Of a stretch of 58,500 nt of DNA, positions 4,039 to 45,105 are shown one piece after another. The notes below the pieces were generated by a model. That model worked only from the letters and a program-made list of their open reading frames with translations, was not told the origin of the DNA and ran no database searches. Every line of letters begins with the position of its first letter. Position 1 is the first letter of the stretch. The stretch is taken from assembly GCA_027322505.1 (NCBI GenBank), contig DAHVRJ010000074.1, positions 1 through 58,500 of the forward strand, read 5' to 3'. The DNA is from Demequinaceae bacterium. Its GTDB lineage: Bacteria; Actinomycetota; Actinomycetes; Actinomycetales; JAJYRW01. The position numbers were made by a program, and so were the translations under genes.

Positions 4039-4074
4039 CGATGCTAGATTGAAGCGAAATATCTAGATCACGAT

Positions 4075-4122: not shown

Positions 4123-4210
4123 ACACAGCGCCGGCCACCGGTTGGCGCATTTGCCCACGGTCAACATTCGCTTGCCTTATCGCGCGAACCTTGGCTCCGG
4201 ATTGATCCCT

Positions 4211-4256
4211 AGACCGATTACTGAATGTTCCCCAGTCCGATCACTGAATGATCCCC
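4211..4256. repeat. 23-bp tandem direct repeat (2 copies, 20/23 identical)
   Basis: AGACCGATTACTGAATGTTCCCC (4211-4233) and AGTCCGATCACTGAATGATCCCC (4234-4256). The repeat lies 120-165 nt upstream of the ssb-like start codon. Confidence 0.8.
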
Positions 4257-4376
4257 CGCTTGACGTCGTAGGCACCTTTCCACGGCTTTAATGACCGGCG
4301 ATTTTCTCATCCCGGGTAGCAGCACAAAGTGGTTTCTTAACGGATCGGTATCGAGCCAATCCAGGTAAGGAGAACC

Positions 4377-4910: not shown

Positions 4911-4944
4911 TCGTGTTCCCGATTTAATATAGAAAATATACGGC

Positions 4945-4980
4945 GATGGATGGAGCAGAAGTCTTTCTACTCCATCCATC
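4945..4980. terminator. Bidirectional terminator hairpin between convergent genes
   Basis: Perfect 11-bp arms GATGGATGGAG (4945-4955) / CTCCATCCATC (4970-4980), between the ssb-like gene (+) and the glycoside-hydrolase-like gene (-). Confidence 0.6.
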
Positions 4981-4987
4981 TACGGCT

Positions 4988-7285: not shown

Positions 7286-7350
7286 TGACCGCTCACTTTC
7301 TCATCGAAGTTGACAAACAGTGCAAGAGGGTGTGTAAACTCTAAACCGTT

Positions 7351-7370
7351 CTGATAATACGTATGATCAG
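7351..7370. promoter_or_regulatory. Candidate LacI-family operator
   Basis: 20-bp palindrome CTGATAATACGTATGATCAG with 9 of 10 symmetric pairs and a central CG. It lies in the divergent intergenic region between the GH gene (-) and the LacI gene (+). Confidence 0.45.
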
Positions 7371-7461
7371 TGGTTAAGTCACTAGATTAGCCTCTGGTTG
7401 ACCAAATTTCAATGGAAGAGGGCGGCACGCTGGCGTGCCGGATTGGTGGTGGTCTGTAAAT

Positions 7462-8505: not shown

Positions 8506-8525
8506 TAACTACCGAAAGGAAATAG

Positions 8526-10196: not shown

Positions 10197-10207
10197 AAAG
10201 GAAAAAA

Positions 10208-12450: not shown

Positions 12451-13378
12451 TGATTTGGCGGTCCCAATTGATTTAGATGTTGATGCGCCCGCTGGTCCAC
12501 CCGAGGCCGGCAAAACAAGGTCGGTGAAGGGTGAAACGAAAACGCGTCGCCCCATCTGGCCTCGGATTGCGTTTTACGTTTCCTTGTCAGTATTGGCTCT
12601 TCCTTTTGTGATGCCGACCTGGTGGATGATTACGTCATCATTGAAGCCGCTAAGCGAAATCTTTGCATACCCACCGACCTTATGGCCCTCTGAGCCCACA
12701 TTGGATGCATATCGTGAAGCGTTTATAGTGCAGCCATTCGCAAGGCAATACTTTAACAGTGTCTACATCGCTGCGCTTGTCACGCTCGGTACGATGATCT
12801 TTTCATCATTGGCCGGATATGCGTTTGCGCGCATACGCTTTAAAGGTCAAAACTTCTTATTTTTGGTTGTTCTTATCGGCTTATTGATACCGAGCGAAGT
12901 CACAATCATTCCATTGTTCAAGATGTTTAATGAATGGGGAATGATTGATACGCATTGGCCGTTAATACTAGCAACTACGTTCGGAGCGCCAAGTGTGTTA
13001 GCAACCTTCATCATGCGACAATTCTTCATTACCCTGCCGATAGAATTAGAGGAAGCGGCACGTCTTGATGGCCTCGGCCGCTGGCGAACATGGTTTCTGA
13101 TAGCCATGCCGCTTTCCCGGAGTGCATTGGCCGCTGTGGCCATTTTCACGTTTCAGCATGTGTGGAATCTGTATTTGGAACCGACAGTGTTTTTACAGTC
13201 GCCAGAAATGTTCACCGTGCCACAGGCATTAACCAGATTCACCGACGCTTATGGCGGCGAGATGTGGAATATTCAACTGGCTGCGGGCTCTATGACGGTA
13301 ATTCCGATACTTGTTATCTTCGTGTTGGCTCAAAGGCAGTTCATCCAGGGGCTGGCCCAAACCGGGCTTAAGGGATAA
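12440..13378 (+). CDS. Sugar ABC transporter permease (MalG/UgpE-like)
   Basis: 312 aa, multi-TM, with an EAA loop (LEEAARLDGLGRWRTWFLIAMPL). No ATPase gene is present in the locus. Confidence 0.85.
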   Translation: MSNSDLAVPIDLDVDAPAGPPEAGKTRSVKGETKTRRPIWPRIAFYVSLSVLALPFVMPTWWMITSSLKPLSEIFAYPPTLWPSEPTLDAYREAFIVQPFARQYFNSVYIAALVTLGTMIFSSLAGYAFARIRFKGQNFLFLVVLIGLLIPSEVTIIPLFKMFNEWGMIDTHWPLILATTFGAPSVLATFIMRQFFITLPIELEEAARLDGLGRWRTWFLIAMPLSRSALAAVAIFTFQHVWNLYLEPTVFLQSPEMFTVPQALTRFTDAYGGEMWNIQLAAGSMTVIPILVIFVLAQRQFIQGLAQTGLKG

Positions 13379-13465
13379 CTGCGCTGCGCTTAACGGTTCG
13401 CGGTCATGCTACGCCGGGAATGTAGTGTTGGACGGCAGGCCTTAGGCTTATTTCTCGACATGCCT

Positions 13466-13489
13466 GGCCGCTACGTCCGCGTAGCGGCC
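13466..13489. terminator. Perfect 10-bp hairpin after the ABC operon
   Basis: GGCCGCTACG-TCCG-CGTAGCGGCC. There is no clear U-tract, so terminator function is uncertain. Confidence 0.35.
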
Positions 13490-13567
13490 ATCAATCCGTG
13501 TGGTGCGGTATAAGTTTTGCGGTATAAGTTTTAACGAAGTGATTCGCACCCCAACCTGAGACGAGGA

Positions 13568-15253
13568 ATGTTGGCTGAGTTCATCTACACCATGTACAAA
13601 GCGCGCAAGGCGCACGGCGACAAGGTGATCCTTGATGACGTCACCATGAGTTTTTATCCCGGTGCCAAGATTGGCTTGGTGGGCCCAAATGGGGCGGGAA
13701 AGTCCACGATTTTGAAGATCATGGCGGGCCTTGACGAGGCCTCAAACGGTGAAGCGCGCTTAAGTCCGGGCTATAGCGTCGGAATTCTGGAACAAGAACC
13801 GCCCCTAAATGAAGACAAGACGGTTTTGGGCAACGTGGAAGAGGGCGTGGCCGACATCAAGGCCAAAGTCGACCGCTTCAACGAAATCTCTGGCCTCATG
13901 GCCGAGCCCGATGCCGACTTTGATGCCCTCATGGAAGAGATGGGGCAACTACAAGAGGCAATAGATGCCGCTGATGCTTGGGACCTTGACGCGCAACTGC
14001 AACAGGCAATGGACGCACTGCGCTGCCCACCCTCAGATATGGATGTCAAAGTCTTATCCGGGGGAGAGCGCCGCCGCGTAGCGCTATGCAAGCTCCTATT
14101 AGAGCAGCCAGACTTGCTCTTGCTTGACGAGCCCACTAACCACCTGGACGCCGAATCCGTCCTCTGGCTGGAACAGCACCTGGGCAAGTATCCCGGCGCC
14201 GTTATCGCCGTAACACACGACCGCTACTTCTTAGATCACGTCGCGGAATGGATCGGCGAGGTGGACCGCGGCCGACTCCACGCCTATGAGGGCAACTACT
14301 CCACCTACCTGGAGAAAAAGCAGGAACGCCTGCAAATCCAGGGCAAAAAAGACGCCAAACTCGCTAAGCGACTGGCCGATGAGTTGGAGTGGGTGCGCTC
14401 GAGCGCCAAGGGCCGGCAGAGTAAGTCACGGGCCCGACTCGAACGGTACGAAGAAATGGCCGCCGAGGCTGAGCGCACTCGCAAGCTCGACTTCGATGAG
14501 ATTCAAATCCCGCCCGGCCCGCGCCTGGGCTCGGTAGTAATCGAGGCCAGTGACATTAAGAAGGGCTTTGGGGATCGCGTCCTCATTGACGGCCTCTCTT
14601 TCACGCTGCCGCCCAACGGCATCGTGGGCATCATCGGCCCTAACGGTGTCGGAAAGACCACGCTGTTTAAGACCATGGTGGGACTAGAGTCCCTCGATGA
14701 GGGCGATCTCAAAATCGGCGAAACCGTAAAGATTTCCTACGTCGACCAGACCCGAGCCGGCATTGACCCAGAAGAGTCGGTGTGGCAGGTGGTATCCGAC
14801 GGGCTCGACTACATTCACGTTGGCAACGTGGAGATGCCCTCGCGCGCATATGTCAGCGCTTTCGGCTTCAAGGGCCACGATCAACAAAAGCCGGCCGGCG
14901 TGCTTTCCGGTGGGGAGCGCAACCGCTTGAACCTCGCGCTAACCCTCAAGCAGGGGGGAAACTTACTCCTGCTGGATGAGCCGACAAACGACCTCGACGT
15001 CGAAACCCTGGGCTCGCTTGAAAACGCCCTGCTGGAATTCCCGGGTTGCGCGGTAGTTACCTCGCACGACCGGTGGTTCCTCGACCGCGTCGCAACCCAC
15101 ATCCTGGCGTGGGAAGGAACTGAGGAGGACCCGGCCCAGTGGTACTGGTTTGAGGGTAACTTCGCTGCCTATGAGGAAAATAAAGTCGAACGCCTCGGAC
15201 CGGAGGCGGCCCGGCCCCACCGTGTCACTTACCGCAAACTAACCCGCAGCTAA
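13568..15253 (+). CDS. ettA: Energy-dependent translational throttle protein EttA (ABC-F ATPase)
   Basis: 561 aa. The N-terminus (AEFIYTMYKARKAHGDKVILDDVTMSFYPGAKIGLVGPNGAGKST) is typical of EttA. Two ABC cassettes with LSGGERRRVAL and LSGGERNRLNL signatures. Confidence 0.9.
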   Translation: MLAEFIYTMYKARKAHGDKVILDDVTMSFYPGAKIGLVGPNGAGKSTILKIMAGLDEASNGEARLSPGYSVGILEQEPPLNEDKTVLGNVEEGVADIKAKVDRFNEISGLMAEPDADFDALMEEMGQLQEAIDAADAWDLDAQLQQAMDALRCPPSDMDVKVLSGGERRRVALCKLLLEQPDLLLLDEPTNHLDAESVLWLEQHLGKYPGAVIAVTHDRYFLDHVAEWIGEVDRGRLHAYEGNYSTYLEKKQERLQIQGKKDAKLAKRLADELEWVRSSAKGRQSKSRARLERYEEMAAEAERTRKLDFDEIQIPPGPRLGSVVIEASDIKKGFGDRVLIDGLSFTLPPNGIVGIIGPNGVGKTTLFKTMVGLESLDEGDLKIGETVKISYVDQTRAGIDPEESVWQVVSDGLDYIHVGNVEMPSRAYVSAFGFKGHDQQKPAGVLSGGERNRLNLALTLKQGGNLLLLDEPTNDLDVETLGSLENALLEFPGCAVVTSHDRWFLDRVATHILAWEGTEEDPAQWYWFEGNFAAYEENKVERLGPEAARPHRVTYRKLTRS

Positions 15254-23833: not shown

Positions 23834-24463
23834 TTAAATATAGATGGCAGGATCAGCGTATTCATCGTATTTTTCCGCGGGACGCTCACGCACGCGACCG
23901 GGAACGCCCACGACTACCGTGTGGGCGGGGACGTCTTTAACCACCACCGCATTGGCGCCAATCTGAGCGCCGTCTCCGATAGTTACCGGCCCCAGGACAC
24001 GCGCCCCGGTGCCCAGCACCACGCCGTTGCCAACGGTGGGGTGTCGTTTGCCGCGCGACATGCTACGACCCCCAAGCGTCACTGCGTGGTAAAGCAAAAC
24101 ATCGTCCCCAACTTCGGCGGTTTCCCCAATGACCACGCCCATTCCGTGGTCAATGAAAACTCGTTTACCAAGCTGGGCAGCGGGGTGAATTTCAATTCCA
24201 GTAAGTGCCCGGTTTAGGTGCGAAAATACGCGAGCCGCTAGCCGTAGGCCCGGTTTGCGCCACATCCGGTGCGCCATGCGATGCAACCACAGGGCGTGCA
24301 GACCGGGGTAGGCCAAAACCACCTCGGCGGTCGATCGGACGGCCGGGTCGCGTTCTTTCGCGGCCCTAACGTCATCTCGGAACCTATTTCGGGCATCGCG
24401 CAACAGCGCGCCGAGGCCGGAGCTTCGACGCGCTGTGCGCAAACGATGAGGAGTCATTAACAC
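23834..24463 (-). CDS. cysE: Serine O-acetyltransferase
   Basis: 209 aa. Hexapeptide-repeat left-handed beta-helix ([44 protein letters not shown]). Confidence 0.9.
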
Positions 24464-24468
24464 CGCAG

Positions 24469-25401
24469 TTAGTCAACCAGATCTGCAAAAAGATCAGTGG
24501 ACAGGTACCGCTCCCCGAATGAGGGTACAACCGCGACGATCAACTTGCCCGCGTTTTCTTCCCGCCGGGCCAGCTGATTTGCCGCCCAAATTGCCGCCCC
24601 GGAGGAAATGCCTACCAAAAGACCCTCCTCGCGCGCGGCGCGGCGAGCAAACTCGAAGGACTTGTCAGTGGGCGCATCGAAGACCTCATCGTAAATATCC
24701 GTGTCGAGAATTTCCGGTACGAAGTTTGCGCCCAGGCCCTGAATTTTGTGGGGCCCGGGTTCACCGCCGGTCAAAATTGGAGAATCGGCAGGTTCTACGG
24801 CCACAATTTGGACGCCGGGCTTGCGTTCTTTTAGAACACGGCCCACGCCGGTGATGGTTCCACCGGTTCCAATTCCGGCCACAACGATGTCAACTTCGCC
24901 GTCGGTGTCCGCCCAAATCTCTTCAGCCGTGGTCTTGGCATGAATGCGTGGGTTAGCTTTGTTGGCGAACTGGCGGGCGATCACGCCACCGCGCTCGGCC
25001 GCAATTTCTTCCGCCTTTTCTACCGCGCCCTTCATTCCGCCCGCAGCTGGGGTCAAAACCAGTTCGGCACCGTAGGCGCGCAGCAAAATGCGGCGCTCCT
25101 TGGAGGCGGATTCCGGCATCGTGAATACGGCCTTATAACCGCGCGCCGCCGCCACCATGGCCAGCGCAATGCCGGTGTTCCCAGAAGTCGCTTCCACGAT
25201 CGTGCCGCCCGGTTTTAGATCACCGGCCTCCACTGCTGCGTCAATGATGGCTACGCCGATGCGATCTTTCACGCTTTTGGCGGGGTTGTAGTACTCAAGT
25301 TTGACTGCGACGGTGCCCGGGGCGCCCTCGGTGATCCGGTTTAAACGGACCAGCGGGGTGCGACCAACCAACTGGGTGACGTCGTCGTAGATCTTTGCCA
25401 T
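24469..25401 (-). CDS. cysK: Cysteine synthase A (O-acetylserine sulfhydrylase)
   Basis: 310 aa. [15 protein letters not shown] (PLP lysine), [12 protein letters not shown] and [10 protein letters not shown]. Confidence 0.92.
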
Positions 25402-25487
25402 GGGTCTCCTTGTAGTTTTTGGTACCCGCTTATTGCGTAGGCCGTACTTAGCCTAACGATCTTCGCGCGGTAAAACATTCCTAAAGG

Positions 25488-25579
25488 GCGTCCAACTCGC
25501 AGCAACTGCTTGCGACCCCCGTCGAGCAGTTTGATTCATTCAGACCCCCGTTTGAATAAATCGACTGCGAGTTGGACGC
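25488..25579. repeat. 15-bp perfect inverted repeat enclosing a 62-nt structured spacer
   Basis: GCGTCCAACTCGCAG (25488-25502) / CTGCGAGTTGGACGC (25565-25579). The spacer contains a nested hairpin (minus-strand reading ACTGCT-CGAC-GGGG-GTCG-CA-AGCAGT) and a duplicated ACGGGGGTC. It lies between the CoA-binding-protein gene and cysK. Confidence 0.7.
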
Positions 25580-25617
25580 ATCCTCACGAGATCCAACTGC
25601 CGTTGTGGGCCGTCTGC

Positions 25618-26097
25618 CTACGTTAGTTGGCGTCGTGAGGAGATCACGCCGGTGTTGAAACCGGCAAGATTTAAGCCGCCGTGGAAGCGGGCGTGTTCGA
25701 TCTTTAGACAGCGATCCATAATCACGTTCAGCCCGCTTTGCGTACCGATCCGGGCGGCCTCGTCATTCCAGCTACCGAGTTGAATCCACAGCGTTTGTGC
25801 ACCAATCTTCGCCGCGTCTTGGGCGACCTGTGGAAGGTCATCGTGGCGTCGAAAAACATCCACCAGATCGGGTACCTCCGGCAGCGCCGCTAAGTCCGGA
25901 TACACCGCTTGCCCCAAAATTTCGGTGGCGCGCGGATTTATCAGGTAGACGCGGTAAGGGGAGGACGAGAGTAGATACGTGGCGACGAAGTAGCTGGCGC
26001 GCGCGGGGTTTGTTGAGGCTCCCACAATCGCCACCGACTTAGTTTGCTGCAGTATTTCCAACCGGCGAGCAGCGGTGGGCTGGATCCAAGGGCTCAT
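25618..26097 (-). CDS. CoA-binding domain protein (YccU/YneT-like)
   Basis: KSVAIVGASTNPARASYFVATYLL and a Rossmann-like CoA_binding fold. The ATG at 26097-26095 overlaps the metY TGA (ATGA), which is preferred over the ORF-track start at 26142. Confidence 0.7.
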   Translation of the reverse strand: MSPWIQPTAARRLEILQQTKSVAIVGASTNPARASYFVATYLLSSSPYRVYLINPRATEILGQAVYPDLAALPEVPDLVDVFRRHDDLPQVAQDAAKIGAQTLWIQLGSWNDEAARIGTQSGLNVIMDRCLKIEHARFHGGLNLAGFNTGVISSRRQLT

Positions 26098-27434
26098 TTG
26101 GTGCCTCCTGTTGCCGCCGTGAGGGCTTGGTCGATGTCCCATAAAATGTCGGAAACATCCTCCAGGCCGACGGAGATTCGCACGAGGTCTTCAGTCGCGC
26201 CGGCAGCTTCGAGTTGCTCAGTGGTCAGTTGTTGATGCGTCGTCGAAGCCGGATGCAAAATTAGTGTTTTCGCATCACCAATATTGGCTACGTGTGAGGC
26301 CAATTGCAGCGACTCAATGAACTTGCGCCCGGTTTCGCGGGCGTTTACGCCGCCTGCCAGCCGGAAACCGAATACCGAACCCGGGCCGGCGGGGAAGTAC
26401 TTTTGCGCGCGGTCATGATGGGGGTGGTCTGTCAAGCCCGCCCAGTTCACCGCGGCCACGCGCGGGTCATCGGCAAGCCAGTTAGCGATCGTGTGCGCAT
26501 TTTTAATGTGCTCATCCATGCGCTGGGGCAGAGTTTCAACTCCTTGCAGCAGCAAAAATGCGGAGTGGGGGGAAAGGCTTGGCCCGATATCGCGCAACTG
26601 CTCGGAGCGCAGCCGGGTCAAGAAGCCGTATTCACCGAAGTTTTGCCACCAACTTAAGCCGTTATAAGAGGGCACGGGCTCGGTCAGGAGCGGGAATTTG
26701 CCGTTGCCCCAGTCAAACGTGCCCGCTTCGACCACGACACCGCCGATGGTCGTCCCGTGCCCGCCCAGGAACTTGGTCGCGGAGTGAATCACAATGTCGG
26801 CGCCGTGTTCCAGGGGGCGGTGTAGGTAAGGAGTGGCAAGCGTCGCATCGACAACAAGCGGAATGTTCGCGCCGTGGGCCACTTCAGCCAGCCCCGCAAT
26901 ATCGGCGATCTCGCCGGAGGGATTCGCGATCGATTCAACATAAATTGCTTTGGTGCGCTCGTTAATAGCCGCCGCGTAGTCCGCCGGATCAGAGCTGGAA
27001 ACAAACGTGGTTTCCACCCCGAACCGGCGCAGCGTCACGTCAAGTTGGGTAACTGTTCCGCCGTATAGGCCGCCAGCTGCCACGATGTGGTCTCCTGCGC
27101 CGGCTAGTGAGGCAAACGTGATGAATTCGGCCGACATGCCCGAGGCGGTTGCAACAGCCCCGATCCCGCCTTCCAAGGCGGCTACGCGCTCTTCAAAAGC
27201 GGAGACCGTGGGATTTCCGATACGCGAATAGATCGAACCGTATTTTTGGAGCGCGAAAAGGTTGGCGGCATCTGACGTGTCGGAAAAAACGAAACTTGTT
27301 GACTGGTAGATAGGAACCGCGCGCGCTCCCACTGTCGGATCGGGCACGCTTCCGGCATGGAGAGCTCGGGTGCGAAACCCAAATTCGCGATCGGCACTAG
27401 TTGGCGCAGCGCCGGGAGCAGAATGTGTAGCCAT
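26094..27434 (-). CDS. metY: O-acetylhomoserine sulfhydrylase (aminocarboxypropyltransferase)
   Basis: 446 aa. Cys/Met-metabolism PLP enzyme (VVDATLATPYLHRPLEHGADIVIHSATKFLGGHGT). Confidence 0.9.
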   Translation of the reverse strand: MATHSAPGAAPTSADREFGFRTRALHAGSVPDPTVGARAVPIYQSTSFVFSDTSDAANLFALQKYGSIYSRIGNPTVSAFEERVAALEGGIGAVATASGMSAEFITFASLAGAGDHIVAAGGLYGGTVTQLDVTLRRFGVETTFVSSSDPADYAAAINERTKAIYVESIANPSGEIADIAGLAEVAHGANIPLVVDATLATPYLHRPLEHGADIVIHSATKFLGGHGTTIGGVVVEAGTFDWGNGKFPLLTEPVPSYNGLSWWQNFGEYGFLTRLRSEQLRDIGPSLSPHSAFLLLQGVETLPQRMDEHIKNAHTIANWLADDPRVAAVNWAGLTDHPHHDRAQKYFPAGPGSVFGFRLAGGVNARETGRKFIESLQLASHVANIGDAKTLILHPASTTHQQLTTEQLEAAGATEDLVRISVGLEDVSDILWDIDQALTAATGGTK

Positions 27435-27442
27435 GGGGGTCC

Positions 27443-29461
27443 TTAGGTTTGAGATATGAGTTGATGCTGGCGCGCGGCCTGGGCGGCATGCGCGAGCGAC
27501 TGAGAAGACTGCAGCGATGAGAGGTCTCCCGGCTCCTGGCCAGTAAAGAGTTCTCCCAGTACGCGGCGCAGAATTTTTCCAGACCGGGTGCGGGGCAAAT
27601 CCGGAGTTAAAACAACTGCCGACGGCCGCGCGACGGGGCCAATTGTTCGCGCCACGTGCTCACGCAGTTCCTGACTTAAAGCCGCTTGCTCGGACGCGTT
27701 GAGCTGCGCCGCGGAAGCCTGCGGAATTACAAACGCAACCAGTGCTTGGCCCGTTAGCTCATCAGGCACCCCCGTTACGCCGGCTTCTACCACGCGGGGG
27801 TGGGCGACCAAACTGGATTCAATTTCGGCAGACGATAGGCGATGGCCAGAAATATTTAGGACGTCGTCGAATCGCCCCAGAACTGTTATGTCACCCTCGC
27901 TATCGCGCCGGCCGGCATCCCCAGCCACGTAGTAACCGTGCTTGGCATATTCCGCCCAGTAGGAGTTGAGGTAGCGCTCGGGGTCTTGCCACACGGTGCG
28001 GGCCATCCCCGGCCACGGGTGAGTTATTGCCACCTTGCCCGTGACACCGGGTGCCACTTCGGCGCCGGCATCATCAACAATTTTCACGTCCAACCCGGGC
28101 AGCGGCCGGCCTGCTGCACCGGGTTTTCCAAGGGACTGGCCCGGGAGGTTCGCCAATATCGTGGCGCCGGTTTCGGACTGCCACCACGTGTCGATCACGG
28201 GGGCGCTCCCGCCGCCAATATTGGTTTGAAACCATTCCCACACCGCGGGATTTATGGGCTCTCCTACCGACCCCAAAAGGCGTACCGAAGACAGGTCATA
28301 TGCTCCCAGGTCCAGTTTTCCGTCCCTGTGCCAAGAGATCAGCGAGCGAATCAGCGTGGGCGCGGTGTAGTACGTCGTGACGCCGTAGCGCTCGATAATT
28401 TCCAGGTGGCGGCCCGGATGTGGGGTGTCGGGAGTGCCCTCGTAAATGACCGAGGTGATCCCGTTTAGGAGCGGCCCGTACAGCACGAACGTGTGAGCTG
28501 TAACCCACGCCAGATCCGCGGTAGACCAGTGCACATCTGCCACCCAATCCGCTTTCCCGACCGGTGTGGCGTTGAAATGAGCCCACTGGGCATAGGCGGC
28601 GTGCGTGAGATAGCCCCCGGTGGTGTGCACCAGTCCTTTGGGCCGTCCCGTCGTGCCGGATGTGTACATGATGAACAGTGGATGTTCAGCTGGAAAACTG
28701 CGCGCTGCATGCACCGTTGACGCGGCATCGACCGTCTCATGCCACCACACATCCTGCTGGTCATTCCATGGGATTTGCCCCCGGGCGTATGTTTCCTCGC
28801 CCGTGCGCCGGACCACTATCACCTTCTCCACGTGGTCCAAACCCGCCACGGCCCGATCTACCGTCTCCTTCACGGGTGTGGCCCTGCCGCGCCGGAACTG
28901 TCCATCGGAGGTAATCACGGCCTTGGCTTGGGTGTCAGCGACACGAAAGCGCAGCGCCTCTTGAGAAAACCCGCCGAACACCAGTGAGTGCACGGCTCCG
29001 ATTCGTGCCAGAGCCAGCGTGGCAATGATGGTTTCCAAGATGACCGGAAGATACAAAATGACCCGATCTCCGGCCGTTATGCCCAGTTCTGTAAAGGCAT
29101 TGGCCGCGCGCGCCACTTCATCTTGTAACTGCTGATAGGTCAGCGTCCGCCGATCGCCCGGTTCGCCCTCGAAGTAATAGGCGACTTGATCTCCACGTCC
29201 CCCTGCGACGTGACGATCAACGCAGTTGACGGCGGCGTTTAATTGGCCACCGACGAACCACTTGGCTTCCGGGATGCTCAGCGGACCGTCCCAGTCGCCC
29301 CGGCGCAGCGGCTGGGGCGGATTCCATTCCAAGGCCGTATGCCAGGGCGCATCCCAGTGCAATCGAGCGGCCTGCTGTTCCCACCAACCGGTGGGATCGG
29401 CCGCCGCAATCGCGTAACTGGCGGCCGTCTCATTGGCGTAGGGGGCAAAAATTGTTGTCAT
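27443..29461 (-). CDS. acs: Acetyl-CoA synthetase (AMP-forming)
   Basis: About 672 aa. IMYTSGTTGRPKG, WWQSETG, YYVAGDAGRRDSEGDITVLGRFDDVLNISGHRL and PRTRSGKILRR. The ATG at 29461 forms an ATGA overlap with the permease stop. An alternative ATG lies at 29467. Confidence 0.9.
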   Translation of the reverse strand: MTTIFAPYANETAASYAIAAADPTGWWEQQAARLHWDAPWHTALEWNPPQPLRRGDWDGPLSIPEAKWFVGGQLNAAVNCVDRHVAGGRGDQVAYYFEGEPGDRRTLTYQQLQDEVARAANAFTELGITAGDRVILYLPVILETIIATLALARIGAVHSLVFGGFSQEALRFRVADTQAKAVITSDGQFRRGRATPVKETVDRAVAGLDHVEKVIVVRRTGEETYARGQIPWNDQQDVWWHETVDAASTVHAARSFPAEHPLFIMYTSGTTGRPKGLVHTTGGYLTHAAYAQWAHFNATPVGKADWVADVHWSTADLAWVTAHTFVLYGPLLNGITSVIYEGTPDTPHPGRHLEIIERYGVTTYYTAPTLIRSLISWHRDGKLDLGAYDLSSVRLLGSVGEPINPAVWEWFQTNIGGGSAPVIDTWWQSETGATILANLPGQSLGKPGAAGRPLPGLDVKIVDDAGAEVAPGVTGKVAITHPWPGMARTVWQDPERYLNSYWAEYAKHGYYVAGDAGRRDSEGDITVLGRFDDVLNISGHRLSSAEIESSLVAHPRVVEAGVTGVPDELTGQALVAFVIPQASAAQLNASEQAALSQELREHVARTIGPVARPSAVVLTPDLPRTRSGKILRRVLGELFTGQEPGDLSSLQSSQSLAHAAQAARQHQLISQT

Positions 29462-30360
29462 GCCCATCTCCGTAAGACTCGCTTCTCGCCATGCCCCACG
29501 AGCGAATCGGTCGCTTTGCCCAAAAGAGCAAGTAAGACTATGGCCAGTAAGAGTCGGTCTACGCGCCCATTGTTTTGCGAATCAGTAAGTAAGAAGCCCA
29601 GGCCCACCGAGGACGCAATTAGTTCGGCGGCAACCAAAAAGAGCCAGGCTTGGGCCAGAGCCAGGCGCAGCCCGCTGACGAGCGGGGGAGTGGCGGCTGG
29701 CAAATAGATGGAGCGCAACAGGGCCAATCCCTTTAGGCCGTACGTGCGACCAACCTCGATGAGTTGTCGATCGACATGGCGCAAAGCCGATGCCAGCGTC
29801 GTATAGACGGGGAAGAACGCGCCGATGGCTATGAGCGTTATTTTTGATTCTTCGCCAATCTTCAACCACAGAATTAGCAGCGGTACCCACGCCAGTGATG
29901 GCACTGCGCGCAGCGCGCCAATGGACGGAGCTAAAAATGAGCGAGACAGCGGCGACAGGCCCACTAGGGCTCCCAGCGCCAGGCCCGCAGCGGCCCCGAA
30001 GACAAATCCGAGCAACACGCGCTGGGTGGAAATCGCAATGTGTCCCAGCAACTCTCCGCGCTGCTGCAGGTCAATCAGGGCTTCCCAAACCGCGGCCGGA
30101 GTCGACAACTGGTAGGAGGGAATCAGCCCCGTGGTGGTCACAAAGTGCCAGGCCACCAACACGATAATTGGCAGGGCAGCTCCGGCAACCCAGTGCCATT
30201 TTTGAACGCGCTTTTTGGAACGTGGGCCCCTGCCGCTCCTCGGAGTGGAGGCGGGGAGTGATGCACTTGCGGTAGCCGCAGTTTCTGTCCCGACCCCGGC
30301 ACCCGCCTTGTCTTGTGGACCAGCGGGAGAGACGCCGTCCTTAATCAGTGTTTTTGTCAT
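29458..30360 (-). CDS. ABC transporter permease, NitT/TauT (sulfonate/taurine/nitrate) family
   Basis: 300 aa, multi-TM BPD_transp_1 permease of the SsuC/TauC type. Confidence 0.8.
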   Translation of the reverse strand: MTKTLIKDGVSPAGPQDKAGAGVGTETAATASASLPASTPRSGRGPRSKKRVQKWHWVAGAALPIIVLVAWHFVTTTGLIPSYQLSTPAAVWEALIDLQQRGELLGHIAISTQRVLLGFVFGAAAGLALGALVGLSPLSRSFLAPSIGALRAVPSLAWVPLLILWLKIGEESKITLIAIGAFFPVYTTLASALRHVDRQLIEVGRTYGLKGLALLRSIYLPAATPPLVSGLRLALAQAWLFLVAAELIASSVGLGFLLTDSQNNGRVDRLLLAIVLLALLGKATDSLVGHGEKRVLRRWA

Positions 30361-30362
30361 TT

Positions 30363-31382
30363 TTACTGGTCCTTGTAACGGTCAGAATTTGCTTGCGAGG
30401 CAAAGGTGGGATCAAAGAGCTGGTCGACGGCCCCGTCAATGGTTGCTTGATCGCCAACATCACCGGTTTCGATGAAGATTGGGCCGACTACTTCGAGGAC
30501 TTCGCGCTGGATTTCGCCCGGTACGGGGTCAATATCAAGGCCGGTGCGCTCGAGTACCAACTCGGCAACGTCTAATTCCAGGCCGGCATAGTCGGCAAGA
30601 ATTTCCGCAAGTTCATCGGGGTTTTCATCGGCCCACTGGCGGGCATGCTCATAAGCATCGACGACGGCCTGGGCTAGTTCGGGCTGGTCTTCTAAGAAGG
30701 CTTCACGGGCGTTGAGGAACCCCCAGGTGTTGAAGTCGATATTGCGGTAGAAAAGTTCGGCATCCCAGTCTTTTTCGACCCCGGCCGTGATCGGGTCAAG
30801 GCCGGACCAGGCATCAACGGAGCCATTTTTTAGCGCCGCGGCACCATCAGCGTGCTGGAGGTTTTGCACCTCCACTTCTGTTGGCTCCAGACCGGCTTCG
30901 GCCAGCGCCTGGACTAAGAAGAAGTACGGATCGGTGCCCTTCGTGGCGGCAACGGTCTTGCCAGCGAGGTCAGAAATTTCAGTGATTTGGGAATCGGGTC
31001 CGACCACCAGCGCGGCCCATTCGGGCTGGCTGTAGAGCGAAATTGTTTTTATCGGAGTGCCATTGGCCCGGTTCAATAGTGCGGCCGAGCCGGCAGTGGA
31101 GCCGATATCGAGGGTTTCGGATCGCAGCCCCTCATTGGCTTTATTCGATCCCGCCGACTGCACCCAGGTGACCTCGACGTCTGCCAGTTCTTCTTCGAGC
31201 CAGCCTTTTTCTTTAATAACCAGGCTCAGCGGGTTGTAGGTAGCAAAATCGATTGTCAGGGTTTTGCTACCGGAATCGGTGGGCGATGTGGCCTCGCTTT
31301 CGCCGGCAATGCAGCCGCTTAGCAGCAGGGTTCCGGCAGCGGAAAGAGCAATAATTTTTTGTGAAAAATGGGTAATAGACAT
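30363..31382 (-). CDS. ABC transporter substrate-binding lipoprotein, NMT1/SsuA-like
   Basis: Lipobox LLLSGC. SD GGAG lies 8 nt upstream of the ATG at 31382, which is preferred over 31433. SsuA/TauA-like periplasmic binding fold. Confidence 0.75.
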   Translation of the reverse strand: MSITHFSQKIIALSAAGTLLLSGCIAGESEATSPTDSGSKTLTIDFATYNPLSLVIKEKGWLEEELADVEVTWVQSAGSNKANEGLRSETLDIGSTAGSAALLNRANGTPIKTISLYSQPEWAALVVGPDSQITEISDLAGKTVAATKGTDPYFFLVQALAEAGLEPTEVEVQNLQHADGAAALKNGSVDAWSGLDPITAGVEKDWDAELFYRNIDFNTWGFLNAREAFLEDQPELAQAVVDAYEHARQWADENPDELAEILADYAGLELDVAELVLERTGLDIDPVPGEIQREVLEVVGPIFIETGDVGDQATIDGAVDQLFDPTFASQANSDRYKDQ

Positions 31383-31446
31383 GGGAAACTCCAGGTTTTT
31401 GGGTAAGAAGGGGTAGGGAAAGGGCTTGAACATAGCCCGCGGGTTG

Positions 31447-32316
31447 TTAGCAGTCGCGGTGGCCGACGCCCAACTCTGCCAGCAGTTCGCCGCGTAACTG
31501 CGCTAATTCAGCGCTGGCCCGACTCCGGGGGCGCGGGGCTGTGACCTGCACCTCCCGGGTGATCGTCGCGCCCGGCAGGTCGGTATCGGTGTGCCCCAAA
31601 ACGATGACGCGATCGGCCAGTTGCAGCGCCTCATCAACATCGTGGGTTACCAACAGCACGGTGGTGGGCGACTGCTGATGAATATCCACCAGAAGGTCTT
31701 GCATCCGCAGGCGGGTGAGCGCGTCGAGAGCGCCGAATGGCTCATCGAGGAGTAGGACCCCGGGTTCGCGGGCGAGTGCGCGGGCCAAGGAGGCGCGCTG
31801 GGCCATGCCACCAGAAATCTCGCGGGGACGATGGTCTGCGAAATCGCGCAAACCCACCACGTCTAGCAGGTCATTGACGCGCGCCGTGGCCGTCTTCTTA
31901 TTCGTGCCCAGCGGTAGACCCAGGGCCACGTTGGAAGCAATTGTGCGCCAGGGCAAGAGTCGCGACTCTTGGAAGGCTACCGCCGCGCGGCTGTTGATCC
32001 CGGTAACCGGATACGAACCGATATGCACCTGCCCGGTTGTTGGGGTATCCAGCCCCGCGGCTATGCGCAAGAGCGTGGACTTGCCACAACCGGAAGCCCC
32101 CAGGAGCGCAACGATTTCTCCGGGCGCGATTTCGTAGGTGACATCGCGCAATACGGTGTGCGCGGTGGCGCGGTCGGTAAAGGTTCGGCCCACGTGTTCG
32201 AAACGGAGTTTTTGGGCAGGGGACTGGTCGGCGGCGGAAATATCGGTGCTGCAGGGGCTAAAGGCCGTGTCAGTGTCAGTTTTAGCGGCGGGTTCTGTCG
32301 CCGTTAATGTGGTCAT
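31447..32316 (-). CDS. ABC transporter ATP-binding protein, NitT/TauT family (SsuB/TauB-like)
   Basis: Walker A GASGCGKSTLLR, signature ISGGMAQRASLARAL and Walker B LLLDEPFGALD. The start is uncertain: ATG at 32316 or TTG at 32367. Confidence 0.85.
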   Translation of the reverse strand: MTTLTATEPAAKTDTDTAFSPCSTDISAADQSPAQKLRFEHVGRTFTDRATAHTVLRDVTYEIAPGEIVALLGASGCGKSTLLRIAAGLDTPTTGQVHIGSYPVTGINSRAAVAFQESRLLPWRTIASNVALGLPLGTNKKTATARVNDLLDVVGLRDFADHRPREISGGMAQRASLARALAREPGVLLLDEPFGALDALTRLRMQDLLVDIHQQSPTTVLLVTHDVDEALQLADRVIVLGHTDTDLPGATITREVQVTAPRPRSRASAELAQLRGELLAELGVGHRDC

Positions 32317-32511
32317 TTTGCTGCTTTCAGGTTGGGGCACAGCGCGGTGGATGGCGCCATGGCACAAATTTTCTGGGGCTTACCCAAAGCGCGTGCAACT
32401 ATGCACCGGCGCTGGGTGATCTCCCGGGGATGCGTAGACCTGAAAGCGGTTAAACGCCTCGGCCTGACCTGCCACTTCTTGGCAGCGGCCTAAATGGTGT
32501 TCCGCGGCGTT

Positions 32512-32646
32512 TTAGTGGCTGTCGCGCATGCCCGGGCAGAGCATGCTGAAACACATTCGACAGCTGATGGCCGCGAGTTGGAACTCCGGTTTGGTAAGCG
32601 CAGCGGGGACGGCGAGATGATCGCAGTGCAAGACTTGCGCGTTCAT
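32512..32646 (-). CDS. Unannotated 44-aa Cys/Met-rich small ORF (candidate leader peptide or small metal-binding protein)
   Basis: ATG at 32646-32644 is preceded by GAGAAGGGGAAGAGC (SD-like GGGGA). The translation is MNAQVLHCDHLAVPAALTKPEFQLAAISCRMCFSMLCPGMRDSH, with TAA at 32514-32512. It is below the ORF-track length cutoff. It lies 144-195 nt upstream of the ABC ATPase gene. Confidence 0.35.
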   Translation of the reverse strand: MNAQVLHCDHLAVPAALTKPEFQLAAISCRMCFSMLCPGMRDSH

Positions 32647-32831
32647 GCTCTTCCCCTTCTCTCGTTACGCTGATGCGCTTGATGTGATGCGCTCATGCTT
32701 TTGTGAATCGGTATAGCAACTTAGCGTGTAACAGCTACCGGGGGCAAGCCAGGGTCGGCCTAAGTGATCGAATGCGTCAATCCGTCGCCGCGAGTCGCAA
32801 GGCTTTCGAGCACGAGGTGCCGCATTGGAAT

Positions 32832-32905
32832 TGGAGCGGGTGACGGGAATCGAACCCGCACCGCCAGTTTGGAAGACTGGAGTTCTACCATTGAACTACA
32901 CCCGC
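32832..32905 (-). tRNA. tRNA-Gly (anticodon UCC)
   Basis: The reverse complement reads GCGGGTGTAGTTCAATGGTAGAACTCCAGTCTTCCAAACTGGCGGTGCGGGTTCGATTCCCGTCACCCGCTCCA. Anticodon loop CT-TCC-AA. CCA is encoded. Confidence 0.92.
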
Positions 32906-33240
32906 GTGGGCTGAAAATTATCAGCCAAAAACTGAAAACATCAGCGCGGCGAAACATTACCAGGCGGGGCACAGGGCAGTGCAACTCGGTGCCCACTTTG
33001 TTTGTATCTTTTGCGCTCTTTGGCCCGGCCTTCCGCGTCTTTATTGGGTGCCATGTTCGTCAGATGCGCCCCGTCCTAACTGAAGGCCTTGGCCCGGCAG
33101 AGCTGGCTCAGGTGCAGCGTTGGGCCCTCGCAATTGCCTCCGGTGGGTTTCAGTGGGTAATGTTACTCGCTGGCGTAACTCGCCACAGCCGGGCGCGTGC
33201 ACGTGATTGAGCGCTGGGCAGTAGACTCATCGTTCGTGAA

Positions 33241-37893: not shown

Positions 37894-39084
37894 ATGCAGC
37901 TTGACTGGATCAAACCCCTCATCGGAATTCCTGGTCCGTTCGCTACCGTCTATTTAGATGCCACACGTGGTGACGAATCGGGTTACCGCGAAGTGATGAA
38001 TCGCTGGCAGGGCTTGAAACGCTCCCTGATTAATCAGCACACGCCCGAAGACGTACTGAACCTACTCGAAGATCGCATTTCTCAAGCCACCCACGCCACG
38101 GGGCAAGTGGGACGCTTTTTGATTGTCGGCCGCGGTGAAGTGCTAGTAGACCGCGTAATGAAGACCCCGCCGCTAAAAGATGAGGCGATTTACGCCGGCG
38201 CCCCGGCATTGCGCGCCGCAGCCGCGGCAACTGATGATCAAGTCAATTACTTTCTAGTTGAGATTAACCGCATGGGGGCGGACGTCAAGACACCCGATCC
38301 CCAAAACCCCTTCGGTCCGCTTGAGATTTACGCCCAAATCGCCGGTGAACACGACGTCGTGCACAAGGTCCGCGGTGGCGGGTTTCACCACGGAAGGCTG
38401 CAAAATCGCGCTCAAGATTCATGGGAACGAAACGCAGACTACATCGCTAACCATCTCGATGAACTCGTCACTACCGACCGGCCCGAACTACTGATTCTCA
38501 GTGGCGATGTGCGAGCTGTCGGACTCGTTGAAGAGCGCCTGGGGGAACCAGCGCGCAAGATCTCCACCCAGCTTCCCGGAGGTGGCCGCAATGAGAGCGG
38601 TGAAGATGCTCATTTCCACCAGCAGTTGGAATCAGCGCTGGATGACTACCGCCAGAAACGGCGGGGCAGCGTGATCGCCCGCTTTGAACAAGAGCTCGGT
38701 AGAGACGAGGCGGCCGTTACGGGCCAAGCGGATGTATTGCAGGCCCTTCAGCGCGGTCAGGTATCAGAACTGCTCCTGCAGGGGGATGGTTCCAGCTCGC
38801 CGGAACCGGAGGCTTCCCTGTGGATCGGCCAGGGGGCGCTAGAGGTAGCTGACTCCGAATCCGAAGTGCGCGAACTTAGTGATACCGCCGAGGAGCTCTC
38901 AGCCGACATCGCACTTTTGCGCGCCGCAGTGGGACAAGATGCCGGGGTCACTTTCGTAAATGACTCCCTCACCCTTCCTGGCGGGGTTGGCGCGCTGCTG
39001 CGCTGGAAAGACGCCGCCACGCCAGATGAAAATGTTCTGTCCTTTAGCGACGATTCCCAGCGCTTGCGCGCCGAGCCGTACTAG
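37894..39084 (+). CDS. eRF1-like / Vms1-like (baeRF-type, Rv2629-like) hypothetical protein
   Basis: 396 aa. N-terminal PFATVYLDATRGDESG and central HKVRGGGFHHGRLQNRAQDSWERNADYIANHL. From memory these resemble the bacterial archaeo-eukaryotic release-factor-like family. Strong SD AGGAGG. Confidence 0.5.
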   Translation: MQLDWIKPLIGIPGPFATVYLDATRGDESGYREVMNRWQGLKRSLINQHTPEDVLNLLEDRISQATHATGQVGRFLIVGRGEVLVDRVMKTPPLKDEAIYAGAPALRAAAAATDDQVNYFLVEINRMGADVKTPDPQNPFGPLEIYAQIAGEHDVVHKVRGGGFHHGRLQNRAQDSWERNADYIANHLDELVTTDRPELLILSGDVRAVGLVEERLGEPARKISTQLPGGGRNESGEDAHFHQQLESALDDYRQKRRGSVIARFEQELGRDEAAVTGQADVLQALQRGQVSELLLQGDGSSSPEPEASLWIGQGALEVADSESEVRELSDTAEELSADIALLRAAVGQDAGVTFVNDSLTLPGGVGALLRWKDAATPDENVLSFSDDSQRLRAEPY

Positions 39085-42666: not shown

Positions 42667-42785
42667 ATTGGCTGACGCAAATCCATAAAAGCCACTTGCG
42701 CTAAAAGCTCTACTGTGTCATTATCTTTTTCATGCACATTACAATTTCTATGCTTCGCAACGACCAGGTTTCTGCCTGCGCCGAT

Positions 42786-42827
42786 ATGCGAATGCGAATG
42801 TGCATGATGTGCCGCTCGAACTTCTAA
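42786..42827 (+). CDS. Candidate leader micro-ORF rich in Met/Cys codons (MRMRMCMMCRSNF)
   Basis: ATG CGA ATG CGA ATG TGC ATG ATG TGC CGC TCG AAC TTC TAA. An in-frame ATG at 42750 would give the 25-aa product MLRNDQVSACADMRMRMCMMCRSNF. The stop lies 188 nt upstream of the FMN reductase ATG. No convincing SD was seen. Confidence 0.4.
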   Translation: MRMRMCMMCRSNF

Positions 42828-43015: not shown

Positions 43016-43573
43016 ATGTCATCCATCGTTCTAATTGGGGGATCGCCTTCTCCCACCTCACGCAGTTCAGTCGTCCTGGATCAGGTCGCCACCCAGATCA
43101 AACTCGCAGGATTTGAAGTCGAGCGCATTGAAGTGCGCGATATTGATCCTGCCGCTTTACTGTTCGCTGACTTTGGCCACCCAGACGTGCTAGCTGCCGG
43201 GGAAAAGATTGAGCGTGCATCAGCGGTGGTGCTAGCAACGCCGGTATATAAGGCATCGTATTCGGGGGTGCTCAAATCACTCCTTGATCTGCTTGCACGC
43301 GACGCGTTCCACAATAAACCGATTCTGCCCATTGCGACGGGCGGAACAATCGCGCACCTACTGTCAATTGACTACGCGCTGCGTCCCGTTCTCTATGCAC
43401 TGTGTGCGGAAAAGGTATTAGCGGGCCGATTTATTCTCGATAAAGACGTTTCTACGATTGCTCCCAATGTTGGCATCGAAGATGCAGAAGCGTGGGATGC
43501 GTTGGAGGCTCAAATTGCCACGCTATGCGATGAGGTGACGCATCTCAATCAGCGAGAACTAGCGGCTGTTTAG
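43016..43573 (+). CDS. ssuE: NADPH-dependent FMN reductase (SsuE-like)
   Basis: 185 aa. IVLIGGSPSPTSRSS, ATPVYKASYSGVLKSLLDLL and IATGGTIAHLL. SD AGGGAAG. Confidence 0.7.
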   Translation: MSSIVLIGGSPSPTSRSSVVLDQVATQIKLAGFEVERIEVRDIDPAALLFADFGHPDVLAAGEKIERASAVVLATPVYKASYSGVLKSLLDLLARDAFHNKPILPIATGGTIAHLLSIDYALRPVLYALCAEKVLAGRFILDKDVSTIAPNVGIEDAEAWDALEAQIATLCDEVTHLNQRELAAV

Positions 43574-43668: not shown

Positions 43669-45105
43669 GTGTCTAAACAAATTCGCGTAAACGGTTTTGA
43701 AATGGCCACACCGGGCCACATTAATCACGGACTGTGGCGGCTGCCGGGGAATCGGCGGGTCGACTACAACAAGTTGGACTATTGGATCGAGCTGGCGCGC
43801 GTGGCCGAGAGGGGACTCTTCGACGCAATTTTCCTAGCAGATGTGGTCGGCACGTACGGGACCTATAAGGGCTCGCGGCGCCCGGCGTTGAAGGCGGGCA
43901 TGCAGGTGCCCAACATCGATCCTAGTTATGTAATTCCGGCGATGGCTGCCGTGACCGAACATCTCGCGTTCGCGGTTACCGGCACGACCACATATGAACC
44001 GCCTTTTGGTTGGGCACGGCGGCTATCGACCCTCGATCATCTGACCAACGGCCGTTTCGCTTGGAACGTCGTAACTGGTTATCTCCCGGATGCTGCTGCA
44101 AACTACGGCTTGAGCGCGCAAATTAAACACGACGATCGCTACGAGATTGCTGACGAATACCTCGAGGTCATTTACCGCTTACTGGAGCTGTCGTGGGACG
44201 AAGACGCCGTTGTTAAGGACGGCGCCAGCCACCTCTATTCTGACCCGGACCGGGTGCATGAAATTGGCTATGAGGGTCGACATTTCAAGGTGGCGGGTCC
44301 TCATCTGTCCGAACCTTCGGTTCAGCGCACTCCGGTTATCTACCAGGCGGGGACTTCCTCGCGCGGCAAGGCGTTTGCTGCCCGCCACGCCGAGGGTGTC
44401 TTCTTACTACCGCGCGATGATCAGCAGGCACAGGAAGAGATTGCCGACCTTCGCCGCCTCGCGGTCGAAGAGGGAAGGCAAGCAGAAGATGTTAAGGCCT
44501 TCCTGGGCGTCGAAATTGTCACCGGGCACAGCACCGATGAGGTTAATGCGAAGGTGCAAGTTCTTGCAGATAACCGCGATATCGAGGGGCATCTCGTGTT
44601 GTTCTCCGGCTGGGCGGGAATTGACCTGTCGGGTGACGACACCGATAAATACCTTGAATACAAAGCCGGCGATGCGATGCAGACATTTGAGCGCATGTGG
44701 TCAGAGGGTGAGGACCGCAAGAAGGTGGGCGAACTTGTCGAGCACCTATCGCATCCAGCAAATGACAAGTTGTTCATTGCTGGAACGCCTGACCAGGTGG
44801 CTGACCGCCTCATAGGTCTGATTGACGGAACCGACGCTGATGGAATCAATCTCGTCCAGCACCTATCCCCGGGCACCTTTGAAGACTTCTCGAATCTCGT
44901 TGTGCCCGAACTGCAGCGCCGCGGCCGCTACCGCACCGCCTACACCCCGGGCGAAACGCTCCGGGAACGCTTGCACGGCTCCGGAGCACGTCCGCTTCCC
45001 GGTCACCCAGCTGCTGCTTATGCGCAGGAGCGTGAGCTGCGCCAGGCGCAGCGTGGAACAAACGGTCAAGTAACCAACCCAAACAGTGAATTCGCATCGG
45101 TTTAA
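43669..45105 (+). CDS. LLM-class flavin-dependent monooxygenase, NtaA/SnaA/DszA(SoxA) family
   Basis: 478 aa. FEMATPGHINHGLWRLPGN, AIFLADVVG, LDHLTNGRFAWNVVTGY and IYQAGTSSRGKAFAARHAEGVF. GTG start. Confidence 0.8.
   Translation: MSKQIRVNGFEMATPGHINHGLWRLPGNRRVDYNKLDYWIELARVAERGLFDAIFLADVVGTYGTYKGSRRPALKAGMQVPNIDPSYVIPAMAAVTEHLAFAVTGTTTYEPPFGWARRLSTLDHLTNGRFAWNVVTGYLPDAAANYGLSAQIKHDDRYEIADEYLEVIYRLLELSWDEDAVVKDGASHLYSDPDRVHEIGYEGRHFKVAGPHLSEPSVQRTPVIYQAGTSSRGKAFAARHAEGVFLLPRDDQQAQEEIADLRRLAVEEGRQAEDVKAFLGVEIVTGHSTDEVNAKVQVLADNRDIEGHLVLFSGWAGIDLSGDDTDKYLEYKAGDAMQTFERMWSEGEDRKKVGELVEHLSHPANDKLFIAGTPDQVADRLIGLIDGTDADGINLVQHLSPGTFEDFSNLVVPELQRRGRYRTAYTPGETLRERLHGSGARPLPGHPAAAYAQERELRQAQRGTNGQVTNPNSEFASV

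Follow-up and report, generated by a model that had tools for sequence, protein, structure and literature searches.

The 58,500-nucleotide contig DAHVRJ010000074.1 of a Demequinaceae bacterium (assembly GCA_027322505.1; the whole stretch is called the window below) carries on its minus strand a 44-codon open reading frame (ORF) that lies between a tRNA-Gly(UCC) gene (32905-32832) and an eight-gene cluster on the same strand, the ABC/acs/metY/cysK/cysE operon. Its conservation among relatives and the modelled folds of the RNA around it suggest that this leader ORF, together with the structured 195-nt leader that follows it, is probably a ribosome-mediated, cysteine-responsive translational attenuator of the operon. 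An earlier reading of the DNA letters (the original prediction) had picked out this Cys/Met-rich small ORF ahead of the sulfur genes, and in substance its interpretation is borne out: the ORF, its Shine-Dalgarno (SD) sequence and its Cys core are conserved ahead of the sulfur operon.

The leader ORF occupies 32512..32646 (44 codons plus stop, with ATG at 32646 and TAA at 32514-32512; this and all other features of the leader and operon are on the minus strand), and its translation is MNAQVLHCDHLAVPAALTKPEFQLAAISCRMCFSMLCPGMRDSH. Coordinates and peptide are exactly those first given for it, and the SD-like block that had been noted (AAGGGGA, 32652..32658) lies 5 nt 5' of the ATG. Its Cys codons are C8 (32625-32623), C29 (32562-32560), C32 (32553-32551) and C37 (32538-32536). 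The stop codon is separated by 144 nt from the program-called TTG start (32367) of the ABC ATPase gene and by 195 nt from that gene's ATG (32316), and the ORF runs in the same direction as the gene, as had been described. The ATG is conserved in all relatives (AAUGAC is kept, and the sequence upstream of it, including the 51 nt between 32367 and 32316, carries insertions and deletions), and we rejected the TTG as the ATPase start and take the intervening 51 nt to be non-coding leader. The length of the leader ORF is not significant by itself, since 17 ORFs of at least 20 aa overlap the 540-nt spacer region, and a 44-codon ORF is unremarkable at the local 58–60% G+C. Its composition, in contrast, is unusual: three or more Cys together with three or more Met in a 12-residue stretch are found in only 2 of the 739 program-called ORFs of 20–80 aa in the window, so the Cys/Met-rich last third that first drew attention to the ORF is matched by just one other. 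That other is the ORF that holds a micro-ORF at 42786-42827, and each of the two sits immediately upstream of sulfur-acquisition genes that run in its own direction.

The whole leader recurs in at least six metagenomic lineages whose ATPases are 70–91% identical to that of the window (91% in L081; about 77–78% in L084/L178, L085/L180, L179, L083/L185 and L186; 70–73% in L086/L168, L082 and L164), and its relatives were found only in metagenomes (soil, compost and manure). Every relative whose contig reaches far enough has the order tig, tRNA-Gly, promoter, small ORF, ABC operon; thus the synteny by which the original prediction proposed to judge the ORF is present, with SD, start and length kept and the ORF always between tRNA-Gly and the ssu-like ABC/cys operon. 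The ORF is 44 codons long in the window, L081, L084/L178, L180 and L179 and 41 codons long in L086 and L082, the differences being in frame, unlike the 5' untranslated region (UTR) and the downstream leader, which have many insertions and deletions. An SD-like block (GAAGGGGA or GAGGGGA before ATG, GGGAGG before GTG) and a start codon stand at the aligned position in every lineage with enough sequence. Between the window and L084, codons 1–28 contain 15, 10 and 12 substitutions at codon positions 1, 2 and 3, respectively (16 non-synonymous and 3 synonymous codon changes), and this even spread argues that the N-terminal product is not under selection; within codons 29–44 just 3 codons differ. 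Conservation is much higher at the Cys positions and in the C-terminal third than in the remaining peptide, the comparison that had been suggested for the Cys and Met positions, and, judged from these alignments, a variable N terminus joined to 16 near-invariant C-terminal codons would be the pattern expected of a leader peptide.

The C-terminal core, with consensus RMC[C/F][C/R/S]ML[C/S]PGMR, is nearly invariant. It reads SCRMCFSMLCPGMRDSH in the window and L081, ACRMCCRMLCPGMRDSH in L084 and L180, ASRMCCCMLCPGMRDSH in L179, MQRMCCCMLSPGMRERH in L086 and MQRMCCCMLSPGMRELR in L082, and the alignments show the R-M-C-F-S-M-L-C-P-G-M-R of the window (32524..32559) as RMCCRMLCPGMR, RMCCCMLCPGMR or RMCCCMLSPGMR in relatives. 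The Cys codons are consecutive in L084/L180 (CC, in MCCR) and in L179/L086/L082 (CCC, in MCCC), and one synonymous TGC/TGT change is found at the second Cys position among relatives; the ancestral core was probably a CC or CCC run whose adjacency the window copy has lost. The contig depth of a soil metagenome (Logan assembly, run X15) rises from about 25 to 480–570 exactly over 32418-32441 and 32514-32561, which are the invariant blocks B and A described below, and suggests that many co-occurring relatives share both blocks. Apparent "joints" in Logan contigs that tie tRNA-Gly directly to the Cys core were taken as alignment artefacts and not as deletions, because the contigs' own upstream sequence shows diverged L084, L085 and L086 types.

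Outside these relatives the leader was not seen. A genome scan with the binding protein of the operon found 80 Micrococcales loci at 58–71% identity, and the leader is absent from all 80 of them; in 78, those whose contig extends far enough, the gene immediately upstream of that for the binding protein is the ATPase gene. Blocks A or B were not found (≤2 mismatches) in more than 150 other loci, nearly all from Micrococcales, and the core was not found elsewhere in the window. The 44-aa peptide had no match among 5.8 billion called proteins, and this negative is uninformative because L081, a 96%-related contig, also carries the ORF uncalled. The window's binding protein has no exact-protein record, and no record exists for the proteins of the window itself. 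The leader forms a new sequence family within a known kind of regulator, confined as far as seen to one uncultured Micrococcales-like lineage.

A promoter-like element is predicted upstream of the ORF, with the −35 hexamer TTGCCC (32742..32747) and the −10 hexamer TAAGTT (TANNNT; 32718..32723) separated by an 18-nt spacer and a predicted transcription start at about 32712-32710. In the window the −10 sits 72 nt upstream of the leader ATG, and the predicted 5' UTR is about 65 nt long. CGCTA[A/G/C]GTT is kept in all lineages with upstream sequence, and TTGC precedes the −10 by the same distance, without gaps, in the window, L081, L084, L179, L086, L082 and L180. The conserved promoter is sub-consensus, and a strict promoter consensus scan gave no match. 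It is the sole conserved promoter-like element; nothing comparable was found downstream of 32512, where an ABC operon promoter would have separated the ORF from the genes it was proposed to control, and the position of the element suggests that leader ORF and operon are co-transcribed. A leaderless start at the internal ATG 32556 was rejected as the default, as there is no TANNNT at the right distance.

The RNA contains two sets of complementary segments, both conserved. Two 15-nt blocks about 100 nt apart, A (CCCGGGCATGCGCGA) and B (ACGCATCCCCGGGAG), are invariant in relatives whose flanking proteins differ by 22–30%. Segment 2 (A, UCUGCCCGGGCAUGCG, 32525..32540) lies within the last 8 sense codons of the ORF and can pair with either segment 1 or B. 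Segment 1 (GCAUGCUC, 32539..32546) is the 5' arm of hairpin H1, which it forms with 32533-32526 (GGGCAUGC); H1 has a calculated energy of −11.4 kcal/mol, is invariant in 8/8 sequences and is predicted by RNAalifold. Segment 3 (B, CGCAUCCCCGGGAGA, 32420..32434) is complementary to A and invariant in 10/10 sequences, and the A:B duplex (14 bp, −24.8 to −27.8 kcal/mol) is equalled by 0.8% of 2000 shuffles. Immediately 5' of B is segment C, an anti-SD (GCUUUCAGGU, 32438..32447), which is complementary to segment 4 (D, ACCUGAAAGC, 32323..32332); D contains the SD-like GAAAG of the ABC ATPase gene and ends 6 nt before its AUG. The C:D duplex is present in 9/9 lineages when sought without an alignment (−11.8 to −19.1 kcal/mol), outranks 98% or more of the shuffles in 6 of the 9, and is also in the RNAalifold consensus; L164 keeps it as ACCUUCGGUCU : AGACCCAAGGC, with 5 pairs changed on both sides.

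The leader contains further helices. P2' has its 5' arm, AAACGCC (32506..32512), overlapping the last two bases of the stop codon and pairing with GGCGUUU (32458-32452); it is predicted by RNAalifold, 92% of its alignment cells are paired, and one pair is changed on both sides. Hairpin P2 (CUGCCA ... UGGCAG, 32469..32485) is replaced by CUCGU/GCGAG in L086 and L082 and is 87.5% paired in the aligned register, and P3 (AGGCCGAGGCG ... CGCUUU..GGUCU, 32436..32465) appears in constrained minimum free energy (MFE) folds and is 91% paired across the family. P4 (CCCAGCGCCGGUGCA UAGU UGCACGCGCUUUGGG, 32383..32416) has 7 of its 13 pairs changed on both sides; like C:D, P2 and P4 show covariation. P4 is not followed by a U tract, the next sequence being UAAGCCCC, and no intrinsic terminator-like site was found in 32200-32950. 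The expected read-out is therefore SD sequestration, that is, translational attenuation, and the short terminated transcripts that had been proposed as a read-out are not to be expected.

These elements combine into two folds of similar energy in the window, an OFF fold (H1, P2', P2, C:D and P4; −65.0 kcal/mol) and an ON fold (A:B, GCCACU:AGUGGC, P3 and P4; −62.1 kcal/mol) in which P3 captures C and leaves D free. Across the family both folds are 87–88% paired, compared with 25–47% for slid controls. A stalled ribosome was modelled as a footprint constraint at the first Cys positions, at C37 or at the stop codon. With the footprint at the first Cys codons the MFE structure is the ON fold and the probability that the bases from SD to AUG are unpaired is 0.48–0.82; with the footprint at the stop codon this probability is 0.22–0.44, and with the footprint at the stop or at C37 the MFE structure shows the SD-masking C:D helix (the exception is L179 at the stop). 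The effect holds in the window, L081, L084, L085/L180 and L179.

From these observations we infer the exact pairings, the translation of the ORF, the stalling, the direction of the switch and the translational output as follows: transcription would begin at the conserved promoter about 65 nt upstream of the ORF, and ribosomes would load at the leader SD and translate the ORF. With ample Cys-tRNA the ribosome would pass the Cys codons and reach the stop, H1 (1:2) and P2'/P2 would form behind it and C would pair with D, burying GAAAG and the bases up to the ATPase AUG, so that the operon would be poorly translated. When Cys-tRNA is scarce the ribosome would stall at the Cys codons (C32 to C34 in relatives), covering segment 1 and not segment 2; A would then pair with B (14 bp), the leader would refold, P3 would capture C, and the freed SD would allow the operon to be translated. 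Of the Cys/Met-rich composition first noted, the Cys part is a conserved core. The Met enrichment is probably a by-product of RNA structure: two of the three invariant Met codons supply the AUG within the two GCAUGC arms of H1/A and are explained more simply by an RNA constraint than by Met sensing.

Several points weigh against the attenuator. The window copy itself has no adjacent Cys codons (C-R-M-C-F-S-M-L-C, with TGT-TTC-AGC), and with isolated Cys codons only it may sense cysteine weakly or not at all. The key switch helices A, B and H1 are invariant and so have no covariation support, and the covariation lies mostly in P4, a hairpin that both folds contain. For L086 and L082, constrained folding gives no change in SD accessibility. 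A:B and C:D cross, and since the nested-only model forbids their coexistence, their predicted exclusivity could stem from the model itself; a pseudoknot that holds both helices is topologically possible and would have the opposite switch logic. A 347-nt manure contig (run X17) shares only the 35-nt H1/A core (32513-32547), with flanks that differ on both sides, and reads ..GRMWQLRQSML.. upstream without a Cys run in frame; it may come from a paralogous leader elsewhere or from a divergent lineage. That the N-terminal frame is open is not significant alone (P of about 0.5 per lineage, with other frames mostly open too), so the long form of the ORF rests on the conserved SD and start and the in-frame lengths, and an internal start that gives a 14- or 17-codon peptide is possible. 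Finally, no RNA runs with this locus were found.

Among other explanations, the same leader ORF could sense Cys-tRNA with premature termination as its output, through Rho-dependent polarity in the 195-nt untranslated leader. The lack of an intrinsic terminator agrees with this, as do the length of the untranslated leader and its slight excess of C (0.32) over G (0.28), and Rho-dependent termination has been proposed for terminator-less actinobacterial Cys leaders (PMC1262725). The leader is, however, highly structured, the C/G ratio reaches no more than 1.4 in its best 78-nt stretch, and its best-supported long-range helix (C:D) ends at the ATPase SD/AUG, which points to translational control. 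We regard Rho-dependent termination as the sole output as unlikely; Rho-type termination and SD masking could also act together.

It is also conceivable, and in our judgement rather improbable, that the leader is a ligand- or protein-binding RNA switch, for example an undescribed sulfur-metabolite riboswitch, in which the ORF is incidental. The 15-nt invariant blocks, the several covarying hairpins and the SD-sequestering helix would suit such a switch, and in the N-terminal part nucleotide conservation crosses reading frames (ACCGRAGTT). There is in addition a precedent at the same position: in about 55 Arthrobacter-type loci a SAM-I-like (S-adenosylmethionine) riboswitch precedes the orthologous ATPase gene (for example L010:4897-5070, L056:4806, L016:4948 and L001:4814). 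This element scores 37.4 bits (E 4.9e-7), below the Rfam gathering score of 44.4 because of an 87-nt insertion in P3 of the riboswitch, and standard annotation would therefore miss it. Thus the SAM-I (S-box) riboswitch RF00162 resembles the present leader in controlling, in Arthrobacter-type relatives, the orthologous ABC operon from the same place. The window leader, in contrast, matches no SAM model, and sensing here would use tRNA charging and not SAM; no Rfam family was found at the gathering threshold, and none even at E≤10 on 32250-32850, SAM riboswitch models included. The kept SD and start positions, the in-frame lengths and the synonymous change in the Cys run also count against an incidental ORF, and the invariant block within the ORF lies exactly where a terminating ribosome would stand.

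That the ORF encodes a functional small Cys/His-rich protein (metal-binding or redox), an alternative that had been raised as a CxxC/His zinc- or metal-binding protein, seems very improbable. HCxH and CRMC motifs do occur in the window, L084 and L180, but HCxH is HRNR in L179 and absent from L086 and L082, and CRMC becomes SRMC or QRMC; this loss of ligands argues against a metal-binding protein. The N terminus, with its substitutions even over the codon positions, evolves almost neutrally, the conserved part coincides with RNA stems, and the search of called proteins described above gave no homologue. We give just as little credence to a chance ORF within a conserved promoter/operator bound by a sulfur-responsive transcription factor: program-called ORFs are abundant here and frame openness is not significant, but conservation runs about 330 nt past the promoter-like element and includes covarying helices, SD and start, and the Cys/Met composition is shared by only two window ORFs, both ahead of sulfur operons.

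To our knowledge, cysteine-sensing leader peptides have been demonstrated only in mycobacteria, and are leaderless there. If the attenuator is real, ribosome-based cysteine sensing would also occur in a distant, uncultured Micrococcales-like lineage, in an SD-led form with a trp-attenuator-like relay that ends in SD masking. The mycobacterial polycysteine small ORFs (the "Cys ribulon", 10.1101/834739), a set that includes the cysK-cysE operon of M. tuberculosis, are like the window ORF in being unannotated short ORFs with Cys codons near the C terminus, directly upstream of sulfur operons; in both cases there is no terminator and several loci are present per genome. An RNA duplex masks the SD of the next gene in the mycobacterial case; the conserved C:D helix is predicted to do so here, and in the models a stalled ribosome relieves it in some lineages but not in L086 and L082. 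They differ in that the window ORF has an SD and a predicted 5' UTR of about 65 nt, while the mycobacterial ones are leaderless, and in that the ORF here has 41–44 codons and a variable N-terminal spacer. For Ms5788A of M. smegmatis, attenuation at Cys codons was shown experimentally, and there it is the Cys codons that form the duplex with the SD (Canestrari et al. 2020, bioRxiv 10.1101/834739 / Mol Microbiol 114:93); here the Cys codons are not paired with the SD, and a four-segment relay of H1, A:B, P3 and C:D is predicted. The mycobacterial attenuators are recognized by at least two consecutive Cys codons near the C terminus (Canestrari et al. 2020, bioRxiv 10.1101/834739), which the window copy lacks and which L084/L180 and L179/L086/L082 have; a position upstream of cysteine/sulfur genes is found here too, from Pfam and conserved synteny.

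Seliverstov et al. 2005 (PMC1262725) predicted Cys leader peptides for cys operons of Mycobacterium and P. acnes and for cbs of B. longum. These candidates too are short ORFs that precede cys genes, carry their Cys codons close to the stop and have no terminator hairpin. The present leader differs from them in its uncultured Micrococcales-like lineage, in that its first downstream gene belongs to an ssu-like ABC importer, and in its conserved alternative RNA structures, none of which was found there (PMC1262725). With the classical trp/his/ilv attenuators it shares a leader ORF, regulatory codons beside segment 1 and alternative 1:2, 2:3 and 3:4 pairings (in silico here), but its 3:4 pairing is an SD-masking helix that spans 100 nt and not a U-tract terminator, and its regulatory codons are few.

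The operon that the leader would control starts with the ABC ATPase gene (31447..32316, Pfam ABC_tran), and the rest of it occupies 23834..31433, with the same gene order in L081 and L082. Pfam confirms the gene identities that had been read from the letters of the ABC-acs-metY-cysK-cysE cluster: the order is ABC ATPase, NMT1/SsuA-type binding protein, permease, acs-like AMP-binding enzyme, Cys_Met_Meta_PP (metY-like), CoA_binding_2, PALP (cysK-like) and hexapeptide/SATase_N (cysE-like). Homologues of the binding protein are named aliphatic sulfonate binding proteins in database sources.

The second Cys/Met-rich small ORF of the window, at 42732-42827 on the plus strand, encodes MHITISMLRNDQVSACADMRMRMCMMCRSNF, or the 13-codon MRMRMCMMCRSNF if it starts at 42786. 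An ssuE-like FMN reductase gene (43016-43573) lies 188 nt downstream of it and is followed by a luciferase-like monooxygenase gene (43669-45105). The recurrence with this micro-ORF, which had lent weight to the first ORF, holds in that it too is conserved in diverged relatives and precedes an ssuE/ssuD-like unit. The 52-nt block 42754-42805 has no listed differences in metagenomic relatives, except that one contig differs at a single base, and its flanks differ by about 10% with several insertions and deletions in the same relatives, where the ORF continues with a different C terminus (..CRAILEI*). The 9-mer CGAATGTGY common to both small ORFs is not significant (39 of 100 shuffles). One may tentatively, and with considerable doubt, join the two into an SD-led Cys ribulon outside mycobacteria of at least two operons (ABC-acs-metY-cysK-cysE, and the ssuE/ssuD-like unit from 43016), each with its own Cys/Met-rich R-M-C leader ORF, in which the leader at 32646 would have replaced an Arthrobacter-type SAM-I element and would integrate Cys-tRNA and Met-tRNA charging, through the three invariant Met codons, by means of a pseudoknotted two-state RNA.

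The regulatory front end of this operon is evolutionarily fluid and always related to sulfur amino acids. If the attenuator is real, orthologous sulfur operons would swap among a SAM riboswitch, different Cys leader ORFs and the present element. Cellulomonas-type loci (L063, L069, L078; L005, L009, L020, L034; L046, L051, L153/L154) have other conserved Cys-rich small ORFs before the ATPase gene, with ..LMCRCCRGCSMQPCTGTR*, ..AAMCRCCSCCSMQPCTGPR* and ..MPASCRCCRRSASCPRACAA* as examples; these may be independent Cys leader peptides, and at 70% G+C their chance occurrence is possible. Across 141 loci (mostly Micrococcales) Cys-rich small ORFs upstream of the ATPase gene are not generally enriched (33 forward and 25 reverse). 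The "PGPMEYPYDCCPVLLRA" ORFs of Arthrobacter were set aside as probably translations around the 3' part of the SAM-I-like riboswitch (the coordinates of the two were not compared). A real attenuator would also show that gene callers miss regulators of this kind, as the called proteins yielded 0 matches in 5.8 billion, yet metagenomes of soil, compost and manure hold the DNA element in abundance. The leader would in addition be a compact natural two-state RNA suited to compensatory-mutation experiments.

Two observations concern other parts of the window. The region from about 4000 to 14000 has a G+C content of 0.51, compared with 0.58–0.62 elsewhere, and encodes SSB, a GH43-like glycosidase, a LacI-type regulator, an FAD-dependent oxidoreductase and a sugar ABC transporter; beside a tRNA-Arg gene (301-374), this region may be a carbohydrate-use island gained by horizontal transfer. 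A plus-strand gene at 37894-39084, between clpX and valS, encodes a bacterial archaeo-eukaryotic release factor domain (baeRF_family2, also acVLRF1).

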